Source of the DNA: a virus
Taxonomy: Duplodnaviria; Caudoviricetes
DNA: 64,000 bases
Direction: 5' to 3' (one strand)
IMG/VR virus record: IMGVR_UViG_3300033069_001819
Location: 5,241 to 69,240 of that record
In this document: in pieces, positions 3,333-63,707 of the stretch
Position numbering within the stretch: the first letter of the stretch is position 1
How the letters are laid out: each line of letters begins with the position of its first letter
Notes under the pieces: model-generated
What the model was told of the DNA's origin: nothing
The model's input: the letters and a program-made list of their open reading frames with translations, nothing else
The model's database searches: none
Translations under genes and position numbers: made by a program

Positions 3333-3348
3333 CAAAAACTGGTTTTTG
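3333..3348. repeat. Dispersed palindrome copy 1 (CAAAAACTGGTTTTTG)
   Basis: Read directly; intergenic, just 5' of the GGAGGT RBS of the AAA ATPase. Confidence 0.95.
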
Positions 3349-3361
3349 CAGGAGGTAGCAG

Positions 3362-5254
3362 ATGGACGTAACGCGTAGCGTTTTCAAACTCATTCGTGCC
3401 GGCCAGGGCGGCATCGTACTGACGACGGTCGAACCCGATTACTGTATCGGAGAGCTTCGCACCGCAGCCGCGGCAAAGGACGCGGCATGGCTCGAATTCT
3501 ACACCTGGGGTATGGCTGACGGCCTGATCGACAAGAACGGTAACCCGTTCGCACTTCCATCTGCCGCTGCTGCTGCCGGTTTGTTCGGCCAGGGAGCGGA
3601 CGTCGCCAAGGCGAACGTCCACTGGCAGCGATTCTCCCTCAACGAGGTGCTCGACTGGTTACTCAAGCGTATCCACGACGAAATCCTCGAAGACCAGCAG
3701 GCGAAAGCGAACGGCAAAACCCGGCCAAAAACCGCGGTCACGATTCTGCTTCGCAACGCGGATCGTTATCTCAGCGGCGAAAACCTCAACCTGATGCTGC
3801 TGTCTCAGCTGCAGCAGATGGTCGTAAAGGGCACGGAAGTCGGATTCAGCGTCATCCTGCAGACCGCTCCCGGGTTCACCGTACCGGTCGAACTCGCGGA
3901 GTACTGCGAATTCGTCGAGCACGACCTTCCGGACGAGGAGGAACGGACCGAGATCCTCATCCTGCAGGCAGGCGTCAAGGACGTGCACATCACTCCGGAG
4001 GTGCGTGCGGCTACGGCCGGGCTCTCCGGCGCCAAGACGGTGCAGTTCGTGGCGGAGGCCTTCGGCGGCACGCCACGACGCATCGATACGGCAGAGGTGT
4101 TCCGCAGAAAGGCTTCGTTCCTCGGCAAGAACGCCAAGCTCGATGTCTGGTCGCCGCAGTTCCAGTCCGAGATCAAACTTCGGCCTACAGCTGAAGCTCC
4201 GAACCTGGAAGACGCAACGGAGGTCGTTCTGCTCAGCGAGCGGACAGCGCTGTCGGACGAGAAAATCGCCGAAGGCGATGTCGTCGCCAAAATCCGGTTT
4301 TTGTCCCGTGCCGACAAGCAGCGACACACAGTCGAGCTGCCTGTGATGGCGAAAACCGAGTTCGAGCGGATCTACCGGCCGTTCCGCAACGAGTACAGCT
4401 TCGCGTCCGTAGTGGGTCTGCAGGGCGTCAAGGATCTCCTCCGGAACGCGATGCGGCCCGGCGTGCCGGATCGAGCCAGGATGCGTCACCTGCTCCTGCT
4501 GGGCGTGCCTGGCGTCGGCAAGTCAATGCTGCAGCGCTGCGCGAGCGGCGAGTTCAACATGCCGCTTACGGCCATGCAGAGTGCGAACCTGTACTCGAAG
4601 TGGCTGGGCGATACCGACAAGGCGTTGTACTGGATGCTGAAGACGGTGTCGCAGATCGGCGGCATCCTGGGTATCGACGAGTTCCAGCGGTTCCTGCCTA
4701 CCGGAAACAACTCCGAAAACGGCACGGAAAACCGCGTGCTCGGCACGCTGCTCACGTGGCTCAACGACCAGAACTCCAACCTGGTTCTGTCCGCGGCGAA
4801 CAACGTCAGCAAGCTGCCGGACGAAGTGACCCGATCCGGGCGTATCGACGCCCTGATCTTCGTCGGTTTCCCCGGGCGGGAAGCGAAGGACGCGGCCTGG
4901 GCGATGTACCGGGCGAAACACGAACTTCCGGCGGACTATACCCAGCCGAAAGACGAACACTGGACGCCTGCGGACATTCAGTCCTGCTGTCGTCTCAGCG
5001 AAATGCAGCAGGTTTCGCTCGAAGACGCTGCCAGGTGGATCACACCGTCCTATCGCAAGAACAAGACGCAGATGGACGAGCTGATGCGCTGGGCAGCCGC
5101 TGCCGGCTGTATCTGCGCTGAAACGGGCAAACCCTTCAGCGTCGAGGCGTCGCTGGATCACGGTGCCTCGAACGGCGTGTCGGTCTCCCGCCCGCTCAAG
5201 ACGAAAACCCGACGGATCATGCCGGAAGCGGACGACGCCGCTTCGATGAACTGA
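3362..5254 (+). CDS. Ycf46-like AAA+ ATPase
   Basis: Walker A GVPGVGKS, Walker B ILGIDE, second region of homology NNVSKLPDEVTRSGRIDALIFVGFP; degenerate N-terminal AAA module. Confidence 0.9.
   Translation: MDVTRSVFKLIRAGQGGIVLTTVEPDYCIGELRTAAAAKDAAWLEFYTWGMADGLIDKNGNPFALPSAAAAAGLFGQGADVAKANVHWQRFSLNEVLDWLLKRIHDEILEDQQAKANGKTRPKTAVTILLRNADRYLSGENLNLMLLSQLQQMVVKGTEVGFSVILQTAPGFTVPVELAEYCEFVEHDLPDEEERTEILILQAGVKDVHITPEVRAATAGLSGAKTVQFVAEAFGGTPRRIDTAEVFRRKASFLGKNAKLDVWSPQFQSEIKLRPTAEAPNLEDATEVVLLSERTALSDEKIAEGDVVAKIRFLSRADKQRHTVELPVMAKTEFERIYRPFRNEYSFASVVGLQGVKDLLRNAMRPGVPDRARMRHLLLLGVPGVGKSMLQRCASGEFNMPLTAMQSANLYSKWLGDTDKALYWMLKTVSQIGGILGIDEFQRFLPTGNNSENGTENRVLGTLLTWLNDQNSNLVLSAANNVSKLPDEVTRSGRIDALIFVGFPGREAKDAAWAMYRAKHELPADYTQPKDEHWTPADIQSCCRLSEMQQVSLEDAARWITPSYRKNKTQMDELMRWAAAAGCICAETGKPFSVEASLDHGASNGVSVSRPLKTKTRRIMPEADDAASMN
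4288..4303. repeat. Degenerate palindrome copy (CAAAATCCGGTTTTTG, 1 mismatch)
   Basis: Read directly; lies inside the insertion in the AAA ATPase. Confidence 0.6.
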
Positions 5255-5267
5255 TCCTCCTGCCGCA

Positions 5268-5299
5268 AGGCGCCCTGTAGCCAGGGCGCCTTTTTCTTT
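5268..5299 (+). terminator. Rho-independent terminator
   Basis: AGGCGCCCTG-TAGC-CAGGGCGCCT stem followed by a T-rich tract. Confidence 0.9.
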
Positions 5300-5327
5300 A
5301 CCAGCGAACATTCGACGAAAGGGAAAC

Positions 5328-7316: not shown

Positions 7317-7409
7317 GCCGACCCAATCTTGGTGGCAGTCAGTCCGACCACCAGGCGCAAGTCGGAGCGACATGGTAGTCAATCCGGCAAACGACTCTCT
7401 CTAGGACCG

Positions 7410-7446
7410 GAGCCCGTAGCTCGTCGCTGCGGGCTCTTTTCTTTTT
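7410..7446 (+). terminator. Rho-independent terminator
   Basis: GAGCCCGTAGC...GCTGCGGGCTC stem followed by TTTTCTTTTT. Confidence 0.85.
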
Positions 7447-10321: not shown

Positions 10322-12490
10322 ATGTTACGGCTTCCGACGTTAGCCCCTTTCCTGGGGCTTGGAGTAGCGGCGAATCCTGCTGTCAGCGCCGTCTGTCCTT
10401 ATTGCCGTGTACGTGCGTGGTACACCACCCATGATACCGGAGCAAATGCCGTTTGGCACTATTGTGTAGCCTGCGGCAAGTCCGGGCACATGCTGGACCT
10501 GCTGAGCCACAGACAGGGGCTGAACCCGAGCGAGCTGTTCCCTTTTCTGCGAAACGAGCTACGGCTGCCGATACCTGCCGCGATGGAGCAGGCGTACAAA
10601 GACTACCGGCGTACGATCCAGGCGTTCGCTCTTACCTTCAGAGAAGCACAGAAGGGGCTGCTCGCTCCTACGCAGAAACAGCGTGAGCTCCTGCGTAAGC
10701 TTGGTCTGCTCGCTTCGACGCAGCTCAGTTCCGAGCGGTGGTTCGAGGGCATGTGCCAGTTCTGCGGCATCACGGACCTGTCCGTGCTCCGAAGTCGCAA
10801 GCTGCCTGTGCCTGTTCGCGGTGACGCCTCATGCGTCGTCGTGCCGTTCTGCGTCGTGCCGGGCTTCGCACATCGGCTGCACTTGATCATGGAAGACATG
10901 ACCTGGGATCTGACCGCTGCCGAGCTCGTCGATCCGACGTCGCGAGACAACGCACCGGCCTACGCCGGAATGCAACTCCTGCACAAGAGCGACGCACGCT
11001 GGTTCGTAGGCACGACCATGGTCGACATGCTGTTGCGAGCGCAGGTTCGCCGTCTGTCGACGGATCCGGACCCGTTGCCGATGTTCGGCTGGACGGCCAG
11101 GGAAGAAGCGGTTCACCTTCCAGATATCACGCTGCTGCAGAGTCGGCCTGTCGTGCTTTGGGAACGGACGCTGTCGCCGCACGTGCTTCAGCTGGCGGAA
11201 ATGCTTGGCGCCAAGATCGCTATCGGGCGACCGGACACCCCGCTGGAGCCCGGACGTTCCTTCTCTCGTACGATGCTTCGCTCGTTCGTTGACAAGACAT
11301 CACCGTACGATCTGTGCGACAAGCTGCGGCAGCATGCCTTGGCGCCACGCAGCGTGCTGTGGCGGTGGTGGGGTCAGGCGACTGAACCGGACAAGCTCCG
11401 GATGTACGACGCCTGCAAACGGTTCTCTGACACGACAGCGAACATGGTCCGCAACCTGCCTGGACGACCGCACAAGGTCCCGCGGCCGTGGCAGCCTGTT
11501 CGAGTCGGCAAGGGCAGTTACACGGTACGCAAGCACCAGCTCTACGACGCGGAGGGTCGTATGGTGTCCGCCTACACGTTCGATATCCGTCGCATCGTCT
11601 GGGTACGCGGTAACCTGTTCTGCCTTGTCGGCAAAGTTCGCTCGCTGCGCAAGGTGTACCACCTGCGATTTTACGCCAGGTACACGAACGCATGGCAGCC
11701 GTTACGAACCGGAAACCTTACTGCTTCGCTTCTTGCCGCCGGGCTCGAGACCGGCGCGTTCGCTGCCATGCCGGCGAACAAGCTGTTCAAGCTTCTCACG
11801 TACGTAAGCCTTCGCACGCGAAAACCGCTTACGGAACGTGGCACGAATGTCGCCGGCTGGCGGAAGAACATCTTCTGGCTGCCTGACTGCCGTGTCGGCA
11901 AGGGCGTGCGTCCTCGACGCTATAACCTGCTTCCCGGAGCACCAGGTTTAAGGCAGGTACCCTCGCAGCCATCCTTCGGCCGCGATACCTCCGGCTACCG
12001 AGCTGAAATTCGTGAACTTTATTGGTCGCTCCTGTTCGCCCTGTGTGTGCAGGCTACAGCGCAGCGAGCAGGACCGCTGCCCGGCGGCATCGTTCTGCGC
12101 GATCCACCTTCCACGCTGGTGCGTACTTTGCAGAAAACACTGGCTCTGCAGATACCGTCAAAAACCGGTTTTTGGCCGCATGACTGGCCCTACTTCTACG
12201 CCGATCGCGCGGCATCCTCCGGGAACACAGCGCTTTTCGTCGCGGAAAAGGAAGACGACTTTGTCGCTTCGTCGGCTTTCTGTCGTGTGTTCTTCCAGGA
12301 TATTCCATGGATTTCCACGGATTTCCACGCATCGCTGGTATCGTCGCTGACGAGCTGGTTGGCCTGGTTGTCGGTTCGACCGCGTGTAGCTTCCTGGCAC
12401 GAGTGCATAGCAGTCACGAAGCAACAGTTCGAGGTCTTCTGCCCGGGCTCTACGCAGCACCTCGGCGCTGTCGAGCTGTCGGATCAGTAA
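10322..12490 (+). CDS. Large protein with N-terminal primase-type zinc-binding domain
   Basis: Probable start ATG 10322; CPYC...WHYCVACGKSGHMLDLL resembles the zf-CHC2 domain; the remainder is unrecognised. Confidence 0.65.
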   Translation: MLRLPTLAPFLGLGVAANPAVSAVCPYCRVRAWYTTHDTGANAVWHYCVACGKSGHMLDLLSHRQGLNPSELFPFLRNELRLPIPAAMEQAYKDYRRTIQAFALTFREAQKGLLAPTQKQRELLRKLGLLASTQLSSERWFEGMCQFCGITDLSVLRSRKLPVPVRGDASCVVVPFCVVPGFAHRLHLIMEDMTWDLTAAELVDPTSRDNAPAYAGMQLLHKSDARWFVGTTMVDMLLRAQVRRLSTDPDPLPMFGWTAREEAVHLPDITLLQSRPVVLWERTLSPHVLQLAEMLGAKIAIGRPDTPLEPGRSFSRTMLRSFVDKTSPYDLCDKLRQHALAPRSVLWRWWGQATEPDKLRMYDACKRFSDTTANMVRNLPGRPHKVPRPWQPVRVGKGSYTVRKHQLYDAEGRMVSAYTFDIRRIVWVRGNLFCLVGKVRSLRKVYHLRFYARYTNAWQPLRTGNLTASLLAAGLETGAFAAMPANKLFKLLTYVSLRTRKPLTERGTNVAGWRKNIFWLPDCRVGKGVRPRRYNLLPGAPGLRQVPSQPSFGRDTSGYRAEIRELYWSLLFALCVQATAQRAGPLPGGIVLRDPPSTLVRTLQKTLALQIPSKTGFWPHDWPYFYADRAASSGNTALFVAEKEDDFVASSAFCRVFFQDIPWISTDFHASLVSSLTSWLAWLSVRPRVASWHECIAVTKQQFEVFCPGSTQHLGAVELSDQ
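12159..12174. repeat. Dispersed palindrome copy 2 (CAAAAACCGGTTTTTG, perfect palindrome)
   Basis: Read directly; intragenic (encodes SKTGFW). Confidence 0.95.
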
Positions 12491-14834: not shown

Positions 14835-15188
14835 ATGACTTCGCTTCTCGTAACTGCTTTGGCTACGTGGCAAATCGTCGAGGTGTGGCACCACTCTCTG
14901 CTCATGGCTCGACCTCGAGCTGCGGCAGAGCTGTGGGACAACAAGCTCGGCGAACTCCTGTCGTGCCCCTGGTGCCTGTCCGTCTGGGCTGGCGCCGCGT
15001 GTACGATCCTCTCAGCGTTGCCAGGCAGTTACGGAGCGGCGTTTTCGTTGCTGGTACAGGCTCTCGCGGCGTCACGGCTTGCAAACGTCGGTAACGATGT
15101 GTTTCATGGGTACTGCCGTACCCCGAGATTCACGCTACCGGAGCTCGCAGCCGATGTCCGAATCGACCCAGAAGAAACTGCTGTTTGA
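14835..15188 (+). CDS. DUF1360-like membrane protein
   Basis: LATWQIV...GELLSCPWCLSVW...ALAAS signature. Confidence 0.8.
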   Translation: MTSLLVTALATWQIVEVWHHSLLMARPRAAAELWDNKLGELLSCPWCLSVWAGAACTILSALPGSYGAAFSLLVQALAASRLANVGNDVFHGYCRTPRFTLPELAADVRIDPEETAV

Positions 15189-15540
15189 CGAAAAACTGAA
15201 CGCACTTTTTCGTCCTGTGGCGAATACCGCCTTTACGGCGGTCGACGAGTTACGTTCTGTCGTGATCGTTTACGACTTCTACGACAAGCTCAACGACGCT
15301 CCTGGCGTCAGTAAGGGCTTGTGGCTGTCTGCAGACGGGAACGATCCCCGTCCACCCGACGCGATCGTCGGGTCGATGCTCAACACGCTCCAGTGTGTTG
15401 CGCACATGCTCGACGACGCATTTCACCTTTGCGAGGAAAAAAAGCAGGAGCTGGTCGAAGTGTCTCGCCAGTTGCTGGAAAAACGCAAGGAACTGTCCGA
15501 TGCCGAGCGATCCACGGCAGGAGCTCCTCAAAAAGCTTGA
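15154..15540 (+). CDS. Hypothetical protein with C-terminal coiled coil
   Basis: Probable ATG 15154; heptad-like C-terminus. Confidence 0.7.
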   Translation: MSESTQKKLLFDEKLNALFRPVANTAFTAVDELRSVVIVYDFYDKLNDAPGVSKGLWLSADGNDPRPPDAIVGSMLNTLQCVAHMLDDAFHLCEEKKQELVEVSRQLLEKRKELSDAERSTAGAPQKA

Positions 15541-15916
15541 AGCCAGGATCCGGGAAGCGACGCAAAAACCAGTTTTTGCGTCTCCACCCGGCACGAAAAA
15601 AACACCATCGGTTCGTAAAAACTCACGCAAGGAAGCGGACACTAAAAAGAAGGTAGGCAGTACTGACGGCTACCCTGACGATCTGGCTTTGGCGTGGATC
15701 CCCAGGGTAAGCACGACGTACGTCTGTGCCTCCTGTCATAGCCGGTTGCCGGGCGGAACCCGGCACTGGCGTCTGCTCTCGAAACGCTCGCGTACCTGGT
15801 GGTGCGCGCGCTGCATGTCCATCCACTGCAGTTATCCGCTACCGGAGAATATCCCTCATGTCGAACAAGGTCGTCCGCGCAGAATCCGGTCTACGATTCC
15901 GCAACAACCGCGGTAA
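15500..15916 (+). CDS. Basic zinc-finger protein
   Basis: Probable ATG 15500; CASC...WWCARC; Lys-rich N-terminus. Confidence 0.6.
   Translation: MPSDPRQELLKKLEARIREATQKPVFASPPGTKKTPSVRKNSRKEADTKKKVGSTDGYPDDLALAWIPRVSTTYVCASCHSRLPGGTRHWRLLSKRSRTWWCARCMSIHCSYPLPENIPHVEQGRPRRIRSTIPQQPR
15559..15582. repeat. Dispersed palindrome copy 3, extended (GACGCAAAAACCAGTTTTTGCGTC)
   Basis: Read directly; 24 bp palindrome apart from the central 2 bases. Confidence 0.95.
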
Positions 15917-16241: not shown

Positions 16242-16580
16242 ATGCAGATCTATGGCGGGTCGGACTGGCGAAACAAGACGTACAGCCGTATGAACGTCTG
16301 GCAGCTGCAGCAGGCGCATCTGCCGCCTGCGCACAAAACGGAGCAGCAGCGTAACGCCGAGCTGTCCGTCGGCGACATCGGATTGTCTTCCCGTGTCGCC
16401 AATCAGCTGGAAGAAGCCAGCGTCTTCACGGTCCAGGATCTTCTTGCGCAGCAGGAAGACGTGATCGAGGCATTGTCGTTTCTTGGCGCCCGCGCCATGA
16501 AGGAATGCTGCCGGGCGCTGCGTAATCTCGGTTTCGACAATCAGTACTGTCATGTGGCCAGAAAACCGAAGCGGCGCTGA
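16242..16580 (+). CDS. RNA polymerase alpha-CTD-like protein
   Basis: LSVGDIGLSSRVANQLEEASVFTVQDLL...LSFLGARAMKEC matches the alpha-CTD helix-hairpin-helix pattern (VDDLELTVRSANCLK...GDLV...NLGKKSLTEI). Confidence 0.8.
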   Translation: MQIYGGSDWRNKTYSRMNVWQLQQAHLPPAHKTEQQRNAELSVGDIGLSSRVANQLEEASVFTVQDLLAQQEDVIEALSFLGARAMKECCRALRNLGFDNQYCHVARKPKRR

Positions 16581-19775: not shown

Positions 19776-19790
19776 TAAAACCAGTTTTTG
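19776..19790. repeat. Dispersed palindrome copy 4 (TAAAACCAGTTTTTG, 4-A arm)
   Basis: Read directly; intergenic, abuts GGAG RBS of ATG 19800. Confidence 0.9.
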
Positions 19791-22758: not shown

Positions 22759-23151
22759 TTACTCCGCGCTCAGGTGGTTCATCTTGCAGTCGACGAACTC
22801 CGGTTCGTTCACGTGCATGCTGATCGCGTTCTTGATCGCGACCCGGTGTCGGTTCTCGTCCCTGATGAACTTGGCCCGCTTGACGATTTCCGCGTCGGTG
22901 AGCTGGTCCTCGTAGCCCGCGCGTAACTCGCTTTCTGCGTCCCAGATACGGGCATTCGCTGTGTACAGCGCGTCAAGAAGTTGCAGCAGAACCGGGTCGC
23001 CTGTGTCAATTCCGTCGGTATAATGCGAGACCTGTTTGACGAGCAGTGCCTTGTCCATCTCGCTGTCCGGCAAGCGTTCGTACTTCAATCTTGCGATCGT
23101 AAGCCGGTCGCAAACGTCACAGATCGGTGTCGCGACAATCTTTCGTGCCAT
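22759..23151 (-). CDS. DUF6165-like protein
   Basis: DRLTIARLK...LYTANARIWDAESELR...IRDENRHRVAIKNAI matches the DUF6165 pattern. Confidence 0.7.
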   Translation of the reverse strand: MARKIVATPICDVCDRLTIARLKYERLPDSEMDKALLVKQVSHYTDGIDTGDPVLLQLLDALYTANARIWDAESELRAGYEDQLTDAEIVKRAKFIRDENRHRVAIKNAISMHVNEPEFVDCKMNHLSAE

Positions 23152-23171: not shown

Positions 23172-24320
23172 GTGTCTATCAAGTTTCTGGTTGCCAGTGA
23201 CCTTCATCTTAGCGACCGAATCTGGGCCCAGCGACCCATATTCGGCGACAGTTACCATGCTCTTGATCAAATCGTCAGCCTGGCCCTCGCTGAAAAACCT
23301 GCCGCCGTGATCCTTGCCGGCGATATTCTCAACGTACAGACAAACCCGTCCGTGCCGATTCTGCGTATGTACGAGGCTACGGAGAAGCTGCGGCGGGCTA
23401 TGATTTCCGTGCTCTACGTGCAGGGACAGCACGACTACCAGGTCGAGCCCTGGCTGTCGGCGTTCCCGAACACGCATCACCTGCAACGTCGTCCCTGGGA
23501 GTCTCCGCCCTGCCATGTCGCCGGGCTGGATTTCTCCGAGCGAACGGAACTGGTGCGACAGCTAGAGGAGCTGGCCCAACACCCTGTCGATGTTCTGGTG
23601 TTGCACCAGGTCTGGCAGGACTTCATGGGTGACATCGTCTCGCACCAGCTGTCTTCCGCCGACATCCCTGACAACGTGCGGCTTGTCGTCACCGGTGACT
23701 ATCACGTATCCAGGGTGATTGAGCGGACGACGCCCAGTGGCGTGCACCAGAAGATCCTGAGCCCCGGGTCAACGCACCTGCGGTCGATCAACGAACCGGT
23801 CGACAAGTTCGCGTACCTGGTCCACATGAGTGGTCCGTCGCCGGTACCGACTACGCTCATCCAGCCGCTGCCGCTTTCGTCGAGGCGTGTCGTACGCATC
23901 CAGCTGATGAGCTACGAGACACTGGACGAGATCTTTGCCGCGATCGACGAGGGGCTCGCAGCCGCCGCCGACTACGCGACGAAGAACGCGTTGCCGCCTG
24001 AGCTCGTCTCACCCATGCTCGTGCTCGAGCACACGGACGATACCCTGGCTGCCGTTCGGTCGATCAGGTCGAAGTATGGAAATGCTGCACACCTGTTCTA
24101 CGTGGACAGATCCAGCAGGGTTACGGCAAAAACTGGTTTTTGCGCCGAAGACCGGGCGACCGCTGTCCGGCAGGATCTGCGCTCGGCACTCGCCACTGTG
24201 CTGGATCCGCAGAAGGCACCGGCTGAGTTCGAGCTGGCGACACGGTTGTTGCAGGCCGACGACAAGAAAAATGCACTCGAAACCTGGTTTACAGGAGCAC
24301 TCACGGAGAGCGCAGAATGA
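23172..24320 (+). CDS. sbcD: SbcD/Mre11-like nuclease
   Basis: SDLH, LAGD, QGQHD, HQ, GDYH, PGS motifs; directly upstream of SbcC. Confidence 0.9.
   Translation: MSIKFLVASDLHLSDRIWAQRPIFGDSYHALDQIVSLALAEKPAAVILAGDILNVQTNPSVPILRMYEATEKLRRAMISVLYVQGQHDYQVEPWLSAFPNTHHLQRRPWESPPCHVAGLDFSERTELVRQLEELAQHPVDVLVLHQVWQDFMGDIVSHQLSSADIPDNVRLVVTGDYHVSRVIERTTPSGVHQKILSPGSTHLRSINEPVDKFAYLVHMSGPSPVPTTLIQPLPLSSRRVVRIQLMSYETLDEIFAAIDEGLAAAADYATKNALPPELVSPMLVLEHTDDTLAAVRSIRSKYGNAAHLFYVDRSSRVTAKTGFCAEDRATAVRQDLRSALATVLDPQKAPAEFELATRLLQADDKKNALETWFTGALTESAE
24126..24143. repeat. Dispersed palindrome copy 5 (GCAAAAACTGGTTTTTGC)
   Basis: Read directly; intragenic in sbcD (AKTGFC). Confidence 0.95.
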
Positions 24321-35144: not shown

Positions 35145-35160
35145 TAAAAACCAGTTTTTG
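35145..35160. repeat. Dispersed palindrome copy 6 (TAAAAACCAGTTTTTG)
   Basis: Read directly; between polA and tmk, abutting the GAAGGGG RBS. Confidence 0.95.
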
Positions 35161-39608: not shown

Positions 39609-40155
39609 TCCGTTCAGTCCGTTGCAGACACGTGCGGATCGCTACCTGAAGAACGAAATGGCCTCGCAGCAATGGGAGTCCGCTCGTGTCGAGTGGACGA
39701 TCAAACAACTGAAGCTGCAGGATGATGTCAAGGAGCTGAAAGCACGATCCGCGTTTGCGGATCGTGTCTTTTTTTCCACGTTCAACGAGTGGTTCGCGTC
39801 ATTTCCGTTCCACATCGTTGCGGAGCCGATGATCGACAAAACGCCGATTGACGCGGACCCGCACAGCGTTCACCCACGCTGGTTCGCATCGTTTCTGGAC
39901 CTACCGTTCGTACGGATGTACGAGGACTATTACGTGCAGCAGCAGGCCAGCGACGACAAACGTCCGCTGGCCATGGTCTTTCCCCGCCGCGGGCTGGCCC
40001 AGGGTTTCGTCCTGCACAACGGCGGCATGCAGTTCGTTCCGACGATGTCCAGCGCGCATCTTTTTCTGGCTGGACCACCTTCGGAGCTTTGTCTTTGCGT
40101 GCAGCCGTACGCAAAGCTGATCGAGCACATACAAACCAACATCCCCTGGCGATAA
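39595..40155 (+). CDS. Hypothetical protein
   Basis: 186-aa ORF overlapping the recA stop. Confidence 0.7.
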   Translation: MEKNNPFSPLQTRADRYLKNEMASQQWESARVEWTIKQLKLQDDVKELKARSAFADRVFFSTFNEWFASFPFHIVAEPMIDKTPIDADPHSVHPRWFASFLDLPFVRMYEDYYVQQQASDDKRPLAMVFPRRGLAQGFVLHNGGMQFVPTMSSAHLFLAGPPSELCLCVQPYAKLIEHIQTNIPWR

Positions 40156-40166: not shown

Positions 40167-41054
40167 ATGGGTACGGAACTGGCACTCAAATCACGCGGCG
40201 GCGAGATTGCGAGCAAGGAAGATCCCCGCGTTATCTACACCTCGATGGAGGAGGAAGTACGTGAGCTGGCGGTAAAGAGCAGCACGTCGTTGTCGCAGGG
40301 CAACCTGTTCACGATCATGGTGTGCTTCGAGCTGGGTACGGCAGTCGCCGAGATCCGGGCGATGACGCACCTGGGTGACGCCAAGAAGGAGCAGCAGATT
40401 CAGCTGCTGACTCGGTACTGGTCGGCCCTGGGTTACCCGTGCCGACTCGGTGACGCGTATTCGCTGTGCAGTGTCGCCACGACATTCACGCTCGACTACC
40501 TGCAGAGCCAGTACGATGAACCGCTGGCGAACGGGCAGCGGTTGTCCTGGAAGCACTTCGTCGCGCTCACGAAGGTCGAGGAAGCACAGCGTGGACAGTG
40601 GTTGAAGCACGTGCGTGCGAACTCGTTGTCCGGTAACCAGCTGATCGAGGAGATTCGGTCTCGCGGACTCGTGCAGAACGAACGGTTCGGCGGCAGAAAG
40701 CCGACCGTACCCAAGACGGCACCGGTCATGCTGAACGTGACGCGAACGAAGCTCGCCAACGCACGCAAGTTTCTGGAGGCAGCGAAGGACAGTTTCATGG
40801 AGACGTGCTACGACTACGCGCCGGACGCAGTAGACGAGCAGTACGTCAAGCTGGCGGCACAGACGGTCGAGGAACTGGACCAACTTGAGGAGCAGCTGCG
40901 GTTGCTGCGTCCCGAGCTGGAGAAAGTGCGCTTGCGGGCACAGACCGTCGTCGACAAGCAGACGGAAATCGTCGATGCAGACGTCGTCAAGGTCGTGAAG
41001 AAGGTCGTCAAGAAGCGTGGCGCTCCCAAGCGTTCGGTCAAAGCCGGCAAGTGA
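40167..41054 (+). CDS. Putative DNA-binding protein (DUF1016-N / ParB-HTH-like)
   Basis: LSWKHFVALTKV...RGQWLKHVRANSLSGNQLIEEI matches LSWSH...R..W......WS...L...I; Lys-rich tail. Confidence 0.55.
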   Translation: MGTELALKSRGGEIASKEDPRVIYTSMEEEVRELAVKSSTSLSQGNLFTIMVCFELGTAVAEIRAMTHLGDAKKEQQIQLLTRYWSALGYPCRLGDAYSLCSVATTFTLDYLQSQYDEPLANGQRLSWKHFVALTKVEEAQRGQWLKHVRANSLSGNQLIEEIRSRGLVQNERFGGRKPTVPKTAPVMLNVTRTKLANARKFLEAAKDSFMETCYDYAPDAVDEQYVKLAAQTVEELDQLEEQLRLLRPELEKVRLRAQTVVDKQTEIVDADVVKVVKKVVKKRGAPKRSVKAGK

Positions 41055-44554: not shown

Positions 44555-45117
44555 GCAAGGAATATATCGTAGGTATCGACCCAGGTAAGGCAAAAACTGG
44601 AATTTGCCGCATCGAGTTTCTTCCGGAGCTCGCGCACAACGCGAACATTGTGGAGGCTTTACTGATACCGAATCACGCGGTTCGACCTTACCTGGAAGAC
44701 CTCGCGGCGAAACGGATCAGCTATTACGCCGGCATCGAAGGTCTTGTGTCCTACGGCGCCGTATGGGGCGACGACACGATCCGGACGGCGTATTTCATTG
44801 GTCGGCTGCTGACGTACTTTGAGGACGACGCTGAAATGCGTACGAAATTCGACTTGTTCAGTCGGAAGCAGTACGGCCAGTGGATCACGGACGGTAAGAT
44901 CACCAAGGATGCGAATGTTCGATCCGCGCTCGAGACGACCTACGGGTCGTTCAAGAAAACCGGTCCGCTGGCTGCGCTTGTCGGGCCCACGTCGGACAAG
45001 CGTTCAGCGTTCGCTGTAGCGAAGTACTACGAATACAGGCTCATCGAGCAGGCAAAAGGCAACACGACGTTGCCCGAGTCGCTGTATCGTGCCCTGGAGA
45101 CGGAAGAAGATGAGTGA
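44551..45117 (+). CDS. ruvC: RuvC-like Holliday junction resolvase
   Basis: IVGIDPG, GIEG, SDKRSAFAVA. Confidence 0.8.
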   Translation: MSKEYIVGIDPGKAKTGICRIEFLPELAHNANIVEALLIPNHAVRPYLEDLAAKRISYYAGIEGLVSYGAVWGDDTIRTAYFIGRLLTYFEDDAEMRTKFDLFSRKQYGQWITDGKITKDANVRSALETTYGSFKKTGPLAALVGPTSDKRSAFAVAKYYEYRLIEQAKGNTTLPESLYRALETEEDE

Positions 45118-51460: not shown

Positions 51461-52204
51461 ATGAGCGGAAGAGAAGTAAGAACAGGCTGGTCCATGAATT
51501 ACGCGTGCGATGTCCTGGTCTACAGCTGCGTGACAGGCGGCTACGACCAGGTCGCGAAAACGCTTTTGTCCCGCACTGGCATATCTGATGACCGTGTACG
51601 TTATGTGCTTTACACGGATCAAGTTAGCTCCGTAACCCCTGAGGCTGAAGACGATCCAAAAACCAGTTTTTGGACGCTGCGTCCGCTGTTGTGGCGGCAC
51701 CCGCTCTGCTCTCGGCGAACGGCACGCTGGCACAAGGTGAACAGCCACAAGCTGGACGTCAGTTCGCTCGTAACGGTGTGGATCGATGGCTCGCACCGGT
51801 TCAAGGAAGGCGTGAACGTTGTAGACGACCTCGTGGCGCAGGCTACGAGGTTGACGGATCTGGCGACGTTCAAGCATCCCGAGCGGAACTGCGTGTACCA
51901 GGAGATTCTGGCGTGCAAGCAGTTCCGCAAGGACAACCCTGTGCTGATGGATGCACAGATCAACCGCTACCGTGCCGAGGGTTACCCGGCCTACGCGGGT
52001 ATGGTCGAAACGTCGTGCGTCGTGCGAAAAAGCTCGGCGGCGGTGACGCAGTTCAACAACGCATGGTGGCAGCAGATCGAAGCAGGAAGTTACAGGGATC
52101 AGCTGTCGTTCAACTACGTTGCTCGTAAGCAGAATTTTCTGTACGGTATCGTCCCGGGCGACCGGGTCAATTCACCGTTTTTCGAGTACGTAGGGCACAA
52201 CTGA
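51461..52204 (+). CDS. DUF616 (TOD1/MUCI70-like) glycosyltransferase
   Basis: VYSCVTGGYD, YTD, WIDGS, FKHPERNCVYQE, RDQLSFNY. Confidence 0.85.
   Translation: MSGREVRTGWSMNYACDVLVYSCVTGGYDQVAKTLLSRTGISDDRVRYVLYTDQVSSVTPEAEDDPKTSFWTLRPLLWRHPLCSRRTARWHKVNSHKLDVSSLVTVWIDGSHRFKEGVNVVDDLVAQATRLTDLATFKHPERNCVYQEILACKQFRKDNPVLMDAQINRYRAEGYPAYAGMVETSCVVRKSSAAVTQFNNAWWQQIEAGSYRDQLSFNYVARKQNFLYGIVPGDRVNSPFFEYVGHN
51655..51674. repeat. Dispersed palindrome copy 7 (TCCAAAAACCAGTTTTTGGA)
   Basis: Read directly; intragenic (PKTSFW). Confidence 0.95.
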
Positions 52205-56792: not shown

Positions 56793-57317
56793 ATGCTGCA
56801 AGATCTGGTTTCGTCGCTCTACGCGGCAGCTCTGCTATGCAAGTTCTACCACTGGAACGCTCGTGGCTCAGCGTTTCATCCGCTGCACAAGCTGCTCGAC
56901 GAAGTTTACGACGTTCTGAGCGACATCGCGGACGAGCTGGCGGAGCGTCAGGTCGCCCTGGGCACAGCTGTGGCCACGACGCCGGATTCCGTGTCCAAGG
57001 CGTTCGCTTCGCCGTCGAACGGGTTCGTGTCATGTGATGCGTCGATCGATGCGGTCGATGATCTGCTGACCAGCCTGTTCGAGGACATGCGGCGAAAGTG
57101 GGACGGCGGAGTCGATGTCGTAACCGCCAACATGCTGCAGGAAAAAGCAGCTCAGGTACAGAAATACCGTTGGCTCGTGGCCAGTCACAGGCTGCCGCTG
57201 ACCGCCAAGAAAGCGGAAGACGAACCATGGACGTTCGACACGCTGCAGACGCGTGTCGCTGCAATTCTGACCGCGGCCAGGAATACGGGAGCGAAAGACG
57301 ATGGACTCGCAGACTGA
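56793..57317 (+). CDS. dps: Dps-like mini-ferritin
   Basis: YHWNARGSAFHPLHKLLDEVY...DELAER: Dps signature with ferroxidase His/Asp/Glu intact. Confidence 0.88.
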   Translation: MLQDLVSSLYAAALLCKFYHWNARGSAFHPLHKLLDEVYDVLSDIADELAERQVALGTAVATTPDSVSKAFASPSNGFVSCDASIDAVDDLLTSLFEDMRRKWDGGVDVVTANMLQEKAAQVQKYRWLVASHRLPLTAKKAEDEPWTFDTLQTRVAAILTAARNTGAKDDGLAD

Positions 57318-58851
57318 TCCGCGGCTGGCAAAAACTGGTTTTGCGACGTCCATGGCTGCCGGTGCAGGCGGCATGGGAGGCATGGGCGGCAATCCGATGT
57401 CGTTTCGCCGCAGTCCTCGATACATGCAGACGTATTCGCACGCGCAGCTCAAGTTTCAGCCCAGTCCTTTCGCGACACAACCAGGACGGCGTGTACCGGC
57501 TACGGCCGCAGGTGTTCAGCAGGTGAAGCAGGCCGGATTGGGTGAGTTCGCCACGGCGTTCTTCTCTGGTGCGATCGAAGCCGGGCATCAGATAGGCGAC
57601 TTCCCCGCCCTCATCAAGCGGGCTGGCGCTCTCGTCGGACCGGAAGTCGAGCAGGAGCTCGCGGCCGAGTTTCAGAAGCTGGCCGGTGGTCCGTTCGACG
57701 TGGTCAAAGGTCTGGGCACGAAGGCTCTCGGGCAGGTACCGAAAGCCTGGAACGCTGCGAAGTCCTACATGCCGTCGATGAGCAAGGCTGTTCCTGCGGC
57801 GAATACGGCACGGAGAACGTTCGGCCAGGCGGCGAAGGATACGGTTGCGACGGGCGCTGCGACAGGTACGCTTGCGGCGGGTACACACTGGGCGAATGAT
57901 CCGAACGCTTCGGTCGGCGATCTGGCGAAGACGTTTGCGGGCGGCGCTGCCACGGGTGGTGCTGTCGCGGCAGGCAATCGCAACGCAGGTGCCTGGGTTC
58001 GACGTAACGCAGCTCAGGCCGATGCTGCCGGTGGTATCGGTGCCGCGGCTGGAGCCACACAGGACACCTACGATCAGTGGAGCGGCACCGGTAAGCGTGT
58101 GTCGCTGCAGAAGGATCCTGTGACAGGTGCTCTGACGCAGGTACCCGCCGAACAGGCGAGTCGTACCGGCTTCAACGCAGGCCTGGGTGCTTTCGCAGGC
58201 ATGAAGGTATTGCCGGCGATCAAGAACCGTGTCTGGGGCGCGGCGTCGCAGGTACCGGGCGGCACGGAGGCGCTGAACACGGCAGGCAACGTCGTGGACG
58301 ACGTTGCCGCCCGGGCTCGGTCCGGCTGGTCGACACTTCGTAACGGGTTGGGCATCGGTGCCGCAGCTGCAGGTACCGGTGCAGGTATCGCTGTCGCGCG
58401 TGATCCGAGTGTCATCCCCGCTGCCAGCGAGCGAGCAGCCCGCGGTGCAGCTGAGGTACTTAAGGATCCGATCTCGAATCGGGTCGCTGACCGCGTAATG
58501 GCCGCGCCGGAGATGCGGGGCATCATGGACATGGCGGGCAGGTTCAGTCAGCCACTGCAGAACATGGGTCAGTTCTGGCAAGGAAACAAGGATTGGCTGG
58601 CACCGATGCTCATGCAGGGGCTCATTGGCGGTGCCGGCGGTTACATGGCAGGCGGGCGACAGGGCATGATGGCGGGCATGGTCGGATTGCCAGCGCTGGT
58701 CCAGGGCATGCAGTACATGGATCCGAACAGCTTCGGCGACCCGCGGATCATCGGCGCCTTGCAGCGCAACGGGCTGCTTGGCGGTGAGCAGGCTACGATA
58801 GACAAGACGCAGAAGGACCTCACGGATCAGGCCATGGCCATGGGCGAGTGA
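57301..58851 (+). CDS. Gly/Ala-rich protein with several glycine zippers, putative internal virion protein
   Basis: VKQAG, IKRAG and QKLAG motifs; several GxxxG hydrophobic segments; shares DPRIIGAL with 53752-55290. Confidence 0.75.
   Translation: MDSQTDPRLAKTGFATSMAAGAGGMGGMGGNPMSFRRSPRYMQTYSHAQLKFQPSPFATQPGRRVPATAAGVQQVKQAGLGEFATAFFSGAIEAGHQIGDFPALIKRAGALVGPEVEQELAAEFQKLAGGPFDVVKGLGTKALGQVPKAWNAAKSYMPSMSKAVPAANTARRTFGQAAKDTVATGAATGTLAAGTHWANDPNASVGDLAKTFAGGAATGGAVAAGNRNAGAWVRRNAAQADAAGGIGAAAGATQDTYDQWSGTGKRVSLQKDPVTGALTQVPAEQASRTGFNAGLGAFAGMKVLPAIKNRVWGAASQVPGGTEALNTAGNVVDDVAARARSGWSTLRNGLGIGAAAAGTGAGIAVARDPSVIPAASERAARGAAEVLKDPISNRVADRVMAAPEMRGIMDMAGRFSQPLQNMGQFWQGNKDWLAPMLMQGLIGGAGGYMAGGRQGMMAGMVGLPALVQGMQYMDPNSFGDPRIIGALQRNGLLGGEQATIDKTQKDLTDQAMAMGE
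57328..57344. repeat. Dispersed palindrome copy 8 (GCAAAAACTGGTTTTGC, 4-T arm)
   Basis: Read directly; 11 bp after the dps stop, inside the next gene (AKTGFA). Confidence 0.85.
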
Positions 58852-59752: not shown

Positions 59753-59774
59753 TCTACCCAGCTTGAAGCACATG

Positions 59775-60494: not shown

Positions 60495-60512
60495 CGGACG
60501 CAGGTAGCTTTG

Positions 60513-60542
60513 GGCCCGGGACTTCGGTTCCGGGCCTTTTTC
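60513..60542 (+). terminator. Rho-independent terminator
   Basis: GGCCCGGGAC-TTCG-GTTCCGGGCC followed by a T tract. Confidence 0.9.
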
Positions 60543-60558
60543 GTATACGGAGTTCGCT

Positions 60559-60774
60559 ATGTCGCCGTTCATACAACTGGGCGTCGTTGTCTGGCTTGCG
60601 TTCGGGCTGGCGATGATCGAAGAGGCCTGGGCACGTAAGCTTTGGGTGTTTAACCCGCTATTGCGTATGTACTGGAAACGGAGAGTGCAGCAGTGGCTGA
60701 AGATAAGGCGGAGCCGACTGGCAAGCCGGCTAAACCGCACGTTTTCCGGGTTCACGATCGTGTCGAGATCGTAA
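60559..60774 (+). CDS. Small membrane protein
   Basis: GGAG RBS; N-terminal TM segment then a basic tail. Confidence 0.45.
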   Translation: MSPFIQLGVVVWLAFGLAMIEEAWARKLWVFNPLLRMYWKRRVQQWLKIRRSRLASRLNRTFSGFTIVSRS

Positions 60775-61250: not shown

Positions 61251-61251
61251 A

Positions 61252-62142
61252 GTGAGCGGACAAGACGATAGCTACATTGACCGGATCACGAGCGGTATTG
61301 AGTGGATCACGCCGGACATCGCGCAGAAGATCCTCGCGAACAATGCTCGCTCGGGCTTTCGCAACCGAACCCTGACACAGACTGTCGTGCAGCATTACGC
61401 CGCGGCGATGGCTGCCGGTGTCTGGGCCTGCAACGGCGAGCCGGTCGTCATCGGAACAGGCGACGAGCTTCTGGACGGTCAGCACCGTATACACGGCGTC
61501 ATTGTGTCGAATACCTCACACCGCATGCTTGTCGTGAGGAACATGTGCCCGAGTGTGTTCCGCACCATGGGCAGCGGTATGAAGCGCACGGCAGCCCAGG
61601 TGCTGGCCATGGCTGGACACAAGAATGCCTCTGTGCTGTCAGCCGCGGCGAAGTGGCTGAAGTACTGGGACGCGAACAATACGTTCCCGGACGCGGTCGC
61701 CGACCGGACACGCAATGTCGACCCGGCCATGGCCGAGCATGTGATCGAGAGGCACCCTGGCCTCGTCGACAGCGTGCGTTTCGTCATGTCCGCGCGTTCG
61801 ACGCCCTTCCACATCGCCCGCCCGCTGGCTGCTGTATTTCGCACGATTTTCTGCGAGTACGACGCGGTGAAAGGATCGCAGTTCTTCGCGGATCTGAACG
61901 ATATGCGGTTCGGTGGCGACGGCTGTCCCGTGCGGGCGCTGACCGCTGCGTACGCTTCCGCGCTCTCCTCGAATCGCATGGAAGCCAGCGCTCGTGTGCG
62001 GGCCGGTTTCTGGTTCAAGGCGTTTAACCTGTATCTTCGCGGCGAGGGCGTAAGCGTGCTGCGCTGCACGAGTTCGGACATCGAAGCGCTGCCTCGCTAT
62101 GTCTTTTCGCGACCAGGTCAAAAACTGGTTTTTGGCGACTAA
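61252..62142 (+). CDS. ParB/Srx-like (DGQHR) domain protein
   Basis: ITPDIAQKIL.NN...NR.L....V..YA..M..G.W...GEP...LLDGQHR; helical C-terminal domain. Confidence 0.8.
   Translation: MSGQDDSYIDRITSGIEWITPDIAQKILANNARSGFRNRTLTQTVVQHYAAAMAAGVWACNGEPVVIGTGDELLDGQHRIHGVIVSNTSHRMLVVRNMCPSVFRTMGSGMKRTAAQVLAMAGHKNASVLSAAAKWLKYWDANNTFPDAVADRTRNVDPAMAEHVIERHPGLVDSVRFVMSARSTPFHIARPLAAVFRTIFCEYDAVKGSQFFADLNDMRFGGDGCPVRALTAAYASALSSNRMEASARVRAGFWFKAFNLYLRGEGVSVLRCTSSDIEALPRYVFSRPGQKLVFGD
62119..62134. repeat. Dispersed palindrome copy 9 (CAAAAACTGGTTTTTG)
   Basis: Read directly; in the last codons of the ParB-like gene (QKLVFG). Confidence 0.95.
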
Positions 62143-62152
62143 ATTTTCCGCA

Positions 62153-62488
62153 ATGTCGTGTCACTATACATTGCAGAACTTAGGGACGAGCTATTCGTCC
62201 AGTTTTGTACAAGCACTACATGACATGCGGAGTTTTTTCATGTTCAATGCGATCGCAGAAATCGACATCTACAGCCACCCTGTCAACCTGGACGCCGAAG
62301 CGGCACGGGTCGCGAGGGAAGGCAACCTCCCGTCGACAGGCGGGTGGACGGCCCTTCGCAGGGCTACGATCGTCAACTTGTTCCGACAGCAGGCGCTAGG
62401 CCTCGCTCCGGTACAGGAAGACGACGCCGACCAATGGTTGGCGGATCGCGCACGAACAAGGGACGAACTGTATCGTCCCTGTTTCTGA
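62153..62488 (+). CDS. Hypothetical protein
   Basis: Probable ATG 62153. Confidence 0.5.
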   Translation: MSCHYTLQNLGTSYSSSFVQALHDMRSFFMFNAIAEIDIYSHPVNLDAEAARVAREGNLPSTGGWTALRRATIVNLFRQQALGLAPVQEDDADQWLADRARTRDELYRPCF

Positions 62489-62642
62489 CTACCCACGCTG
62501 TAGGCAAGGGCACGTCACAAGCAATCTGTCCGTCGTTCGCTCCATCCGTGGAGTGGCGGCGGCGTGCTTATGACGTGTTCCTGGCCTGCAGCGATATTCC
62601 CGGGACCGGACCGTTTTCCTTAGCCCTTGAAAAGGAGAGACC

Positions 62643-63074
62643 ATGTCAGCACTCGTAGCGTACGTGAACCAGCACACGCAGATGGTGTTCCCGACGAAAC
62701 CGCGCAAACGGCGGACGGACGAAGAAGCGGCACGTGTCGCGGATCTGTTTTTCTTCGAGGTCGAAGTCGACGCACAGGCGACGGCGGATAAGCTCCGCGA
62801 GCTAGTGGAAGGACACGCGTCCGAGCTGAGCCCGAATGACGGCGTAGAGCTGCTCAAGCCAGGCACGTCGTTCTCCTACATGCAGCTCGGAGCCTGGATC
62901 GGATCGCAGGAGCTGGCGCTGCGCCTTATGGGCCTGGGCAATGTCCTGGGCTTGTGGCAGCTGATCACACCGCGGCTTTTCGCCCGCATTTGCGACCTGA
63001 CTCAAGAGCAGGCGGAAGACATGGCGGGTAGAGGCTACGTCATGACACTCGTACCCAAGAAGGAACAGGCATGA
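62643..63074 (+). CDS. Hypothetical protein
   Basis: AAGGAG RBS; SYMQLGAWIGSQELALRLMGLG. Confidence 0.75.
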   Translation: MSALVAYVNQHTQMVFPTKPRKRRTDEEAARVADLFFFEVEVDAQATADKLRELVEGHASELSPNDGVELLKPGTSFSYMQLGAWIGSQELALRLMGLGNVLGLWQLITPRLFARICDLTQEQAEDMAGRGYVMTLVPKKEQA

Positions 63075-63694
63075 AAGAGAAGATTTCGGTCGAGGCGTTT
63101 TGCAATCGCTACGGGCTGGACAAGGACACGAGGCACTACCTCGGCCGGTTCCGCACGATGCGGGAAGCCTGGTACGAAGCGGACTCCTGGGCACTGATCC
63201 AGGGCGTGGCGCTGCAGCCAGGCGTACTTTCCGACTGGGCGTACGGACATCTGCTGCACAGGTACATACATCCGGTGTGGTCTTTCCTGATGTCGTGGTC
63301 CGGCGCTCGGGAGATCATAGGCTTGCCGTCCTCGCTGGCGGACACACCTCGCTGGCTGGCCAGGGAGTATCTGACCTGCACACGGATGAGCCGCAAGCAC
63401 AGCGCGGGTGCGACTCGCTGGCTGCGTCGGCACGCGCGGCCGGACTTCTCCATGGCGGCGCACACAGGACGGTACATACGGTCAATCCGGAGAGCAAAGT
63501 TCGACGTAGAATCGAAGTTCTCGTTCGACCTCGTGTCGTACGGTGGAGTGGTGTTCGAGGTCTCCGAAAACGAGCTCGAAGAAATAGACGTAAACTCTTT
63601 ACCTGTGCTGGACATCGTAGCCTCGAAGAAGATCGCGCCGTGTGTCGGCAGACAGTACGTATCGATGTCGTGCGAGTCTGAGACGCAGGGCTAA
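63071..63694 (+). CDS. Hypothetical protein, paralog of the next gene
   Basis: ISVEAFCNRYG...MREAW...PGVLSD. Confidence 0.7.
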   Translation: MKEKISVEAFCNRYGLDKDTRHYLGRFRTMREAWYEADSWALIQGVALQPGVLSDWAYGHLLHRYIHPVWSFLMSWSGAREIIGLPSSLADTPRWLAREYLTCTRMSRKHSAGATRWLRRHARPDFSMAAHTGRYIRSIRRAKFDVESKFSFDLVSYGGVVFEVSENELEEIDVNSLPVLDIVASKKIAPCVGRQYVSMSCESETQG

Positions 63695-63707
63695 AAACTG
63701 GTTTTTG
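63692..63707. repeat. Dispersed palindrome copy 10 (TAAAAACTGGTTTTTG)
   Basis: Read directly; overlaps the TAA stop of the upstream gene and abuts the GGAG RBS of ATG 63713. Confidence 0.95.

Follow-up and report, generated by a model that had tools for sequence, protein, structure and literature searches.

The 64,000-nucleotide (nt) window described here comprises bases 5241-69240 of the 69,240-b IMG/VR record IMGVR_UViG_3300033069_001819, a tailed-phage sequence (Duplodnaviria; Caudoviricetes), and it carries along its whole length a short A/T-tract palindrome, a dyad of the form c-AAAAAC-YR-GTTTTT-g (16 bp, two-fold symmetric), which is the subject of this report. The GC fraction of the window is 0.596, and CheckV rates the record as one third complete. 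A gene caller placed 74 genes in the window, which together occupy 91% of the DNA, and assigned 71 to the plus strand. Recognisable products include a gpA-type large terminase, Mre11/Rad50-like proteins, two helicases, a primase, a thymidylate-kinase-like protein, a UvsX-like recombinase, a portal-like protein, an SNF2 helicase and glycosyltransferases. Three genes whose products were considered as readers of the dyad, encoding the protein designated P0002, a free-standing RNA polymerase alpha-CTD protein and a ParB/DGQHR-like protein, are listed together with the sites in Table 1.

The dyad is over-represented and constrained as DNA

The exact sequence AAAAACYRGTTTTT occurs eight times in the window, and three further copies deviate from it at one position (Table 1). 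Two more copies, at record positions 83 and 3003, lie in the part of the record that precedes the window, so that the whole 69-kb record holds 13 copies at no more than one mismatch, or about one per 5 kb. Base composition predicts 1.6e-4 exact copies per 64 kb, and 100 dinucleotide shuffles of the window contained none, compared with the eight real ones. An initial annotation, made from the letters of the window, had placed all eight exact copies correctly, as well as two of the three deviating ones (4289 and 57330); the third, which it put at 19777, starts at 19776. It had estimated roughly 1e-4 expected copies at a GC content of about 62%, which is higher than the real one.

Every exact copy is followed by G, and C precedes seven of the nine exact copies of the record. 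The palindrome grows to 18-24 bp at 15564, 24128, 51658 and record position 3003. The centres found in this genome are CCAG/CTGG and CCGG; CTAG, absent here, is present in AT-richer relatives. The G behind all eight window copies, the extension of several of them and the restriction of the centres had all been recorded in the initial annotation, and each of these observations holds for this genome.

Copies inside genes use all three reading frames. In 1000 shuffles that preserved both the protein and the codon usage, exact intragenic copies averaged 0.006, compared with 5 observed, and copies at up to one mismatch averaged 0.2, compared with 8 observed. Since these shuffles fall far below the observed count, the constraint acts on the DNA and not on the protein, as had been proposed.

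The 16-mer was found in 78 IMG/VR stretches, each on its own contig, and on no other contig did it cluster as in this phage. A scan of bacterial genomes returned, among the matches listed, scattered single matches in diverse taxa, which speaks weakly against a repeat of host genomes, another possibility that the initial annotation had raised. Exact-string literature searches for variants of the motif returned eukaryotic or primer matches and nothing prokaryotic, in line with the earlier remark that the consensus was not a recognised one.

Sites are enriched at ribosome-binding sites

Non-coding DNA accounts for 9% of the DNA here and for 7-10% across the genomes compared below. Sites fall in non-coding DNA in 5 of 13 cases in this record (p = 0.004), in 11 of 25 in the relative G009 (p = 3e-7), in 11 of 25 in G006 and in 25 of 31 in G004. 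Four window copies adjoin a ribosome-binding site (RBS), as first annotated, lying before genes 3362, 19800, 35173 and 63713/63719 with gaps of 10-14 nt. In the typical intergenic layout the spacer is filled, with a stop codon, the site, a Shine-Dalgarno sequence and then a start codon 10-19 nt past the site. The intragenic copies fall in variable, indel-prone protein stretches. The orientation of the centre (CCAG or CTGG) is independent of gene direction, and both forms precede plus-strand genes.

Table 1. Dyad sites and genes for candidate readers in the window (positions count from its first letter)
Feature	Coordinates	Strand	Remarks
Exact site, centre CTGG	3334..3347		In 35-nt spacer, 14 nt before ATG of AAA ATPase gene 3362; T-run leads into gcAGGAGG
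One-mismatch site AAAATCCGGTTTTT	4289..4302		Middle of AAA ATPase gene
Exact site, centre CCGG	12160..12173		Within ~666-aa gene; kept exactly at homologous place in L152
Exact site	15564..15577		24 nt past stop of gene 15154-15540; 16/16 kept in L152, flanks 29% alike
Free-standing RNA polymerase alpha-CTD protein, second candidate reader or cofactor	16242..16580	+	112 aa, type I subfamily
One-mismatch site TAAAACCAGTTTTT	19776..19789		10 nt before ATG of gene 19800; T-run touches GGAG
Exact site	24128..24141		In Mre11/SbcD-like gene, 956 nt from start; L152 copy 959 nt from start, centre CTGG->CCGG
Exact site	35146..35159		Between PolA stop and thymidylate-kinase-like gene, 13 nt before ATG; heads run tmk ... 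UvsX ... 40167
P0002, lead candidate reader	40167..41054	+	295 aa; ParB/KorB-type helix-turn-helix domain ~45-170 (predicted), GGRKP arm, coiled coil 185-285, basic tail
Hybrid two-mismatch site AAAAACTGGAATTT	44592..44605		Left arm of window-phage type, right arm of sister-clade type; uncertain function
Exact site	51658..51671		In TOD1/MUCI70-like glycosyltransferase gene, variable indel-rich protein stretch
One-mismatch site AAAAACTGGTTTTG	57330..57343		29 nt into gene 57301-58851
ParB/DGQHR-like protein, phrog_5931	61252..62142	+	Considered as reader; not conserved in relatives
Exact site	62120..62133		Last codons of ParB/DGQHR-like gene 61252-62142
Exact site	63693..63706		Overlaps stop of gene 63071-63694; T-run touches GGAG of next gene (ATG 63713 or 63719)

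Motif and placement in related phages

A megablast search with 20 kb against 50,697 phage records found no close cultured relative, and the cultured polymerases nearest to the family-A DNA polymerase (PolA) of this phage in a tblastn search were those of T5-like phages, at only 24-26% identity. Near-identical DNA came from wastewater, activated-sludge, digester and freshwater metagenomes (14 studies). PolA itself, encoded at 31684-35133, has 1149 amino acids (aa) and an N-terminal UDG-superfamily domain, a fusion that is kept across the whole phage group. Relatives were gathered via the polymerase, the portal protein and the 112-aa alpha-CTD protein. One belongs to the same subclade (L152, an 18.5-kb ENA contig with ~69% nt identity over the alignable parts of window 7.7-24.7 kb). 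A sister clade comprises G001-3 and G008-12, with GC fractions of 0.41-0.56, ~40% aa identity to the window phage and a mutual aa identity of 53-61% among G001-3. More distant are G006 (197,309 b, 96% complete), G004 (135,539 b, 94% complete) and the fragments G005 and G007 (29-31% complete).

L152 holds three exact 16-mers, and all three are homologous to window sites, namely those at 12160, 15564 and 24128, within flanks that are 29-62% identical; the intergenic one stands unchanged amid essentially random flanks. The sister clade lacks the window motif and uses AAAWTCYRGAWTTT; each contig of G008-12 has 5-11 exact copies of it and none of the reversed control, and at one mismatch the copies number ~25 per genome (G009, G010). 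Of 11 pairwise comparisons of its intragenic copies, 7 put them at the same codon; the genes concerned are those of the primase, Rad50, the portal protein and the glycosyltransferase, and a ~700-aa gene. At these shared sites identical amino acids are written with the identical codon in 31 of 36 cases, compared with 0.40 elsewhere (p about 2e-8). The reduced synonymous variation that the initial annotation had proposed to look for at intragenic copies is thus seen in the sister clade, and neither of two outcomes that it had named as fatal to the motif, a count reproduced by shuffling and a loss of the sites in relatives, was found.

The distant relatives carry palindromes of their own. In G006, ctcATTGATATCAATgag (ATTGATATCAAT) occurs in about 25 copies, and G004 has 31 copies of the perfect palindrome TTTTGACTCCGGAGTCAAAA over its whole record (L115-L121), 25 of them intergenic; no over-represented palindrome was found in the incomplete G005 and G007. 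Placement is partly conserved across these motif classes. The sister clade, G004 and G006 all have a site either at the 3' end of the primase gene or shortly ahead of PolA, and G001, G002 and G006 have one in distal Rad50. That sites are found against RBSs and ahead of the same core genes speaks more for gene control than for partition.

Several further observations were made in the relatives. The G004 palindrome includes GGAG, and often just 1-5 nt separate its end from an ATG (…GGAGTCAAAAATG), so that the right half also serves as Shine-Dalgarno sequence and spacer. In G006 (L102-L111), 12 of 14 intragenic ctcATTGATATCAATgag copies lie in one frame, in which they encode L-(I/N)-D-I-N-E or a close variant, and 233 of its 235 called genes are on one strand. 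A position 956 nt into the gene, shared by the window Mre11 gene and by G001/G003, was considered and dropped, the genes being non-orthologous (Mre11 and primase). The k-mer table of G001 (L010-L012) is dominated by a block of 17-18 copies of a ~25-nt unit with AAGTGAAGATAAGAACTTAGATT, and in G002 (L013-L016) GGGCCGCAAGGCTAG, which is unrelated to the dyad, recurs seven times. The best conserved of just three minus-strand genes called in the window (22759-23151) encodes a 130-aa protein without a family match that is 50-54% identical across the sister clade, against a genome average of ~40%; in G002, G003, G009 and G010 its homologue contains a sister-clade dyad or has one at its end.

The dyad as a probable protein site on duplex DNA

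In a set of 34 sites from the sister clade, the choice between A and T at position 4 is independent of that at position 11. Only 12 of the 34 have complementary bases there, and each of the four W/W combinations is common. Of nine window copies folded as RNA, two (15564 and 51658) did better than shuffles and seven did not, and a search of Rfam gave no match. Because base pairs do not covary and the RNA folds are weak, the dyad is not a hairpin and is most probably read as duplex DNA, half-site by half-site. Independent half-sites, an A/T-blind position, a flexible central pyrimidine-purine step and exact symmetry would all fit a symmetric protein bound to the duplex. The initial annotation had proposed a dimeric protein, and a dimeric or two-fold symmetric protein on double-stranded DNA (dsDNA) is indeed supported, if indirectly, by DNA-level selection, co-evolving variants, half-site degeneracy and weak folds. 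We consider it highly probable that the dyad is a selected dsDNA docking site of a phage-encoded protein.

P0002 as the candidate reader

Three genes, at 61252, 40167 and 10322, had been suggested to encode the binder. Nothing was found in favour of the 10322 open reading frame. The 61252 product has a DGQHR motif but matches nothing in Pfam (ParB included), NCBIfam or PDB, and none of the relatives has a homologue, not even two 83-84% complete genomes with the sister motif; it therefore cannot be a reader conserved across the clade and was rejected. The 40167 product, P0002, holds as a candidate on its predicted ParB/KorB-type fold, its presence in every relative and the site ahead of its gene in the sister genomes.

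Three structure comparisons (an Atlas model, Foldseek on an AlphaFold model and a Foldseek-independent aligner) agree for P0002 residues 45-170, for which the DNA-binding domains of ParB-parS, Spo0J, Noc, SopB and KorB-operator came at or near the top. The scores were Z 7.3 for 6s6h (ParB-parS), Z 6.8 for 1vz0 and Z 6.0 for KorB (1r71), and KorB 8qa8 was also among the matches. P0002 showed no match to PF02195, the N-terminal CTPase domain of ParB, even at E <= 1; its DNA-binding domain starts after only ~45 residues, with helices in the model from residue 20 onwards. Without this CTPase domain, CTP-dependent clamp sliding is excluded.

A word-based search with P0002 alone found just itself; a profile search recovered the family, with 757 representatives. 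In a sample of 52 family members, 37 match DUF1016_N and 7 match HTH_ParB, which is sequence evidence in favour of the predicted fold. The GGRKP sequence directly after the helix-turn-helix (HTH) is nearly invariant across the family, and its likeness to an AT-hook would suit it to A/T tracts. The profile also identified syntenic homologues between UvsX and a 274-aa gene in G004, G005, G006 and G007, and the family occurs in every genome of the group, those with other palindromes included. In 5/5 sister-clade genomes the P0002 gene is preceded at 12-17 nt by a site, and in G004 a site stands ahead of the UvsX-P0002 pair.

Two side observations concern this gene and its family. Just upstream of the P0002 gene, a strong terminator-like hairpin (39742-39777; 11 pairs, then a T7 run) lies inside a conserved 186-aa gene (39595-40155). 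On an unrelated short contig (L154:549-562), the A/T-tract palindrome TAAAAAACATTTTTA lies ~13 nt before a distant P0002-family gene with an AT-hook match, which is an anecdote only; the P0002-family contigs taken for an independent test were too short.

Proposed mechanism of the dispersed sites

The reading that we favour, to which we give a probability of roughly 0.45 as a full statement, combines a selected dsDNA site with P0002 as its reader and gene control as its purpose. The dyad would be read as a duplex, one half-site per subunit, by a phage-encoded protein, most likely a P0002 dimer, whose HTH and GGRKP arm would be suited to A/T minor grooves and whose coiled coil would serve for pairing; the alpha-CTD protein may assist on the A/T arms. 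The copies would form a genome-wide operator set, with ~40% at RBS spacers and the rest in tolerant coding sequence. As the genome appears to be organised almost wholly in one direction and in long polycistronic units, the bound protein may block or pause the host RNA polymerase, and with copies at RBSs and before PolA, P0002 and other fixed genes, one protein could stop polymerase at many points. The likely outcome would be that gene blocks are silenced or timed, as with KorB operators or stoperators.

Several points weigh against this reading. P0002 itself has no Pfam match above threshold, its matches to Pfam DUF1016_N and to an NCBIfam LmbU-type regulator being weak, and its structure match is middling for an all-helical protein (Z 6-7.3, Foldseek probability 0.94, E > 0.01). 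In the window no site lies directly before the P0002 gene, the nearest upstream being 35146 at the head of the tmk-to-P0002 run, and G006 likewise has none before the gene. Homologues of P0002 are also encoded by the fragments G005 and G007, in which no palindrome was found. Since the motif subtype is matched by the alpha-CTD subtype too, phylogeny confounds the identity of the reader. No promoters were mapped, and repression or a roadblock is therefore suggested by analogy. Finally, conserved mid-gene sites are equally compatible with a structural or organising role.

Alternative explanations

The alpha-CTD protein, and not P0002, may be the reader, with two copies each inserting the conserved arginine (the counterpart of R265 in E. 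coli alpha) into the narrowed minor groove of one A5 or T5 tract; in a variant of this idea, the sites would be UP-like elements contested by the phage protein and the host alpha-CTD, which would re-route host RNA polymerase. We regard the two together as unlikely. In their favour, the window protein scores 29.5 bits against Pfam RNA_pol_A_CTD (PF03118; cut-off 23.8) and its orthologues 38-42 bits, the top ~40 Foldseek matches are all alpha-CTDs (TM 0.7-0.83 on target, rmsd about 2 A), and the equivalents of E. coli R265, N268 and G296 are conserved as R51, N54 and G82. The domain is free-standing, not tethered to an alpha N-terminal assembly domain, and its family numbers about 56 clusters, with proteins of 100-124 aa encoded on contigs that reach 204 kb; a literature search for free-standing phage alpha-CTD proteins found no description. 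Every contig with the protein carries an A/T-tract dyad, and the two agree subtype for subtype, type I (window phage, L152) pairing with AAAAAC and type II with AAAWTC, while G004 and G006 have no alpha-CTD gene and use other palindromes. The preference of alpha-CTD for an A-tract followed by a T-tract, exerted through minor-groove shape (PMC3326320), matches both the A5-N4-T5 pattern and the A/T-blind W at positions 4 and 11. However, alpha-CTD makes no base-specific contacts (PMC3326320), and yet the motif is strictly specific in its C-YR-G centre and flanking c/g. G004 and G006 also have like dispersed palindromes near the same core genes without the alpha-CTD gene, the co-occurrence amounts to one or two phylogenetic events, and sites 10-19 nt from start codons are misplaced for UP elements (-40 to -60). 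As a side observation, G002 encodes a second alpha-CTD domain, fused to DUF6915 (L013:18638-19276; 212 aa).

A joint system, in which a CTPase-less ParB-HTH/coiled-coil protein and the alpha-CTD together read the dyads and capture, park or re-route host RNA polymerase, and which would be typical of a large uncultured group of one-directional phages of ~130-210 kb, seems to us distinctly unlikely. If true, it would amount to a takeover of transcription that uses a polymerase-domain mimic as a DNA-site reader.

We find it improbable that the dyad is, or overlaps, a phage-specific core promoter, with a -10-like element and start region and with short leaders beginning in the T-run directly ahead of the Shine-Dalgarno sequence. 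Such a promoter would account for gaps to the start codon of 10-19 nt that are nearly constant in all clades, and for sites in some relatives that follow terminator hairpins by 6-10 nt (G001 4813 and 8774; G009 134767 / G010 132306, with compensatory stem changes). The arms and flanks of the sister-clade motif read TAAAAT/TAAATT, and sigma-70-type promoters are not enriched in the window. Against it stand a two-fold symmetry that would fire antisense transcription in a one-directional genome, a CCAG/CTGG orientation unrelated to gene direction, an AAAAAC arm without the invariant T of the -10 element, and the many sites that lie mid-gene. A T7-like RNA polymerase was not found in the near-complete relatives, in a search in which control genomes were equally silent. 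The window also has G+C-rich hairpins with T-runs at 2382-2403, 5267-5292 and 7409-7437. After those at 2382 and 5267 the next start codon comes within 20-35 nt, which leaves no room for a promoter, so these are probably leaky terminators or 3'-end stabilisers. Strong terminators without a following site, together with window sites that do not follow terminators, argue against the dyad as a general promoter.

It is in our view very improbable that the dyads act like parS, Noc or MatP sites, as centromeres or chromosome organisers that would serve to segregate, compact or place the phage chromosome, with the 61252 product or P0002 as reader and no part in gene control. Dispersed dyads that ignore gene boundaries, at about one per 5-7 kb along whole genomes, a copy in the 3' end of the DGQHR-like gene and a P0002 fold like the DNA-binding domains of ParB and Noc would suit such a role. 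The particulars of a ParABS system, which has a ParB with a GxxRxxA CTPase box, a ParA ATPase and parS sites grouped near the origin or the par genes, are missing: the 61252 product lacks any Pfam or NCBIfam match, PDB relative or homologue among the relatives, no ParA family occurs among the Pfam matches of window proteins, the sites are genome-wide, and P0002 lacks the CTPase domain that ParB-type loading and sliding require. RBS enrichment and the same-gene upstream placement across clades would be unexpected for pure organisers.

The dyad may be a target of DNA processing (T5-like nicks, cleavage that seeds recombination-dependent replication, base modification) or a site for a host protein, which we hold to be highly improbable. 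The nearest cultured polymerases are those of T5-like phages, distant as they are, the phage encodes Mre11/Rad50, UvsX and glycosyltransferases, and palindromes suit dimeric nucleases; nickases, however, usually need asymmetric sites, the assembled contigs analysed show nothing that points to ends or nicks, motif subtypes shift between subclades in step with phage proteins, and the bacterial genomes show, among the matches listed, the scattered single matches noted above.

An RNA hairpin in a polycistronic transcript, acting as a translational operator, processing site or terminator, would draw on the one-strand gene order by which every copy is transcribed, on the copies directly 5' of Shine-Dalgarno sequences, on the two significant folds and on the GGAG-containing G004 palindrome 0-25 nt ahead of start codons, but is hardly credible given the missing covariation, the seven shuffle-like folds, the marginal A5/U5 stem, the loss in L152 of the longer 24-bp hairpin at 15564, the occurrence of both loop orientations before same-strand genes and the empty Rfam search.

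Significance

As far as literature searches show, the phage group, the DUF1016_N/coiled-coil candidate family and the free-standing alpha-CTD are uncharacterised. The dyads would extend dispersed operator networks, which are known from a few plasmids and temperate phages, to a broad set of uncultured, very large wastewater and environmental phages. Motif and placement are under selection even inside genes, and the motif has been re-tuned between clades while its position by replication genes persists. Two concrete candidate readers emerge, namely a 757-cluster family of DUF1016_N/ParB-HTH proteins with a coiled coil and without an assigned function, and a phage alpha-CTD family. If the binding is real, the protein/site pairs would constitute a natural specificity series for the ParB-type HTH and a source of orthogonal operator-repressor parts.

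Comparison with known systems

The dyad resembles a UP element in its A-tract followed by a T-tract, and the phage encodes a true alpha-CTD domain with the R265 equivalent (PMC3326320). UP elements, however, have little sequence conservation and are found at -40 to -60, whereas the dyads, for all that their A5-N4-T5 composition fits, are exact 16-mers with a specific C-YR-G centre, near start codons or mid-gene, and the alpha-CTD here is free-standing.

With parS/ParB, Noc-NBS, SlmA-SBS and MatP-matS the dyads share a size of 12-16 bp and a dispersal regardless of gene boundaries, and the DNA-binding domains of ParB and Noc are the top structural matches of P0002. The Noc site ATTTCCCGGGAAAT resembles the sister-clade AAATTCCGGAATTT in style. 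The differences are that a CTPase domain, a ParA and a membrane-targeting helix are all lacking here, and that the sites are strongly tied to RBSs and to particular genes.

The operators of P1 C1, the conserved inverted repeats of phiC31 and the 17-bp palindromes of Cluster O are likewise multi-copy, phage-specific sites, at which one regulator is presumed to dock. The dyads differ from them in sequence, in phage group and, as far as these are known, in binding protein, and we know of no such site set from P1, phiC31 or Cluster O that was reported alongside a free-standing alpha-CTD.

Stoperators of Cluster A mycobacteriophages (L5, Bxb1) are phage-specific sites that act on elongating RNA polymerase (PMC9283540, PMC6550527). 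Like them, the dyads number in the dozens, are specific to the phage and enriched in spacers while also occurring in genes, and co-evolve with what would be the phage's own binder; the enrichment lies in the short spacers of co-directional arrays, and motif classes differ by clade, as expected of stoperator-type placement. Stoperators are asymmetric 13-14-mers in one orientation, bound by the monomeric immunity repressor of temperate phages, whereas the site here is two-fold symmetric, its orientation is irrelevant and no lysogeny genes were seen in the window.

The OB operators of plasmid RK2 are bound by KorB, a global repressor of the ParB superfamily (PMC11790492). They share with the dyads a short, A/T-flanked palindrome (OB core TTTAGCGGCTAAA) dispersed over the replicon, with copies both at promoters and far away from them, and the operator is likewise present in many copies, with 13 here, ~25 in G009, G010 and G006 and 31 in G004. 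Both would be served by an element-encoded dimer with a ParB-type HTH, for which P0002 is the modelled candidate, although it has a coiled coil and the GGRKP arm in place of the CTPase domain. In contrast to RK2, the replicon here is a ~200-kb, probably lytic phage with many conserved intragenic sites, in which no KorA, IncC or ParA partners were seen. By analogy, the dyads of this phage group would work in the manner of KorB/OB operators or stoperators while belonging to neither family.

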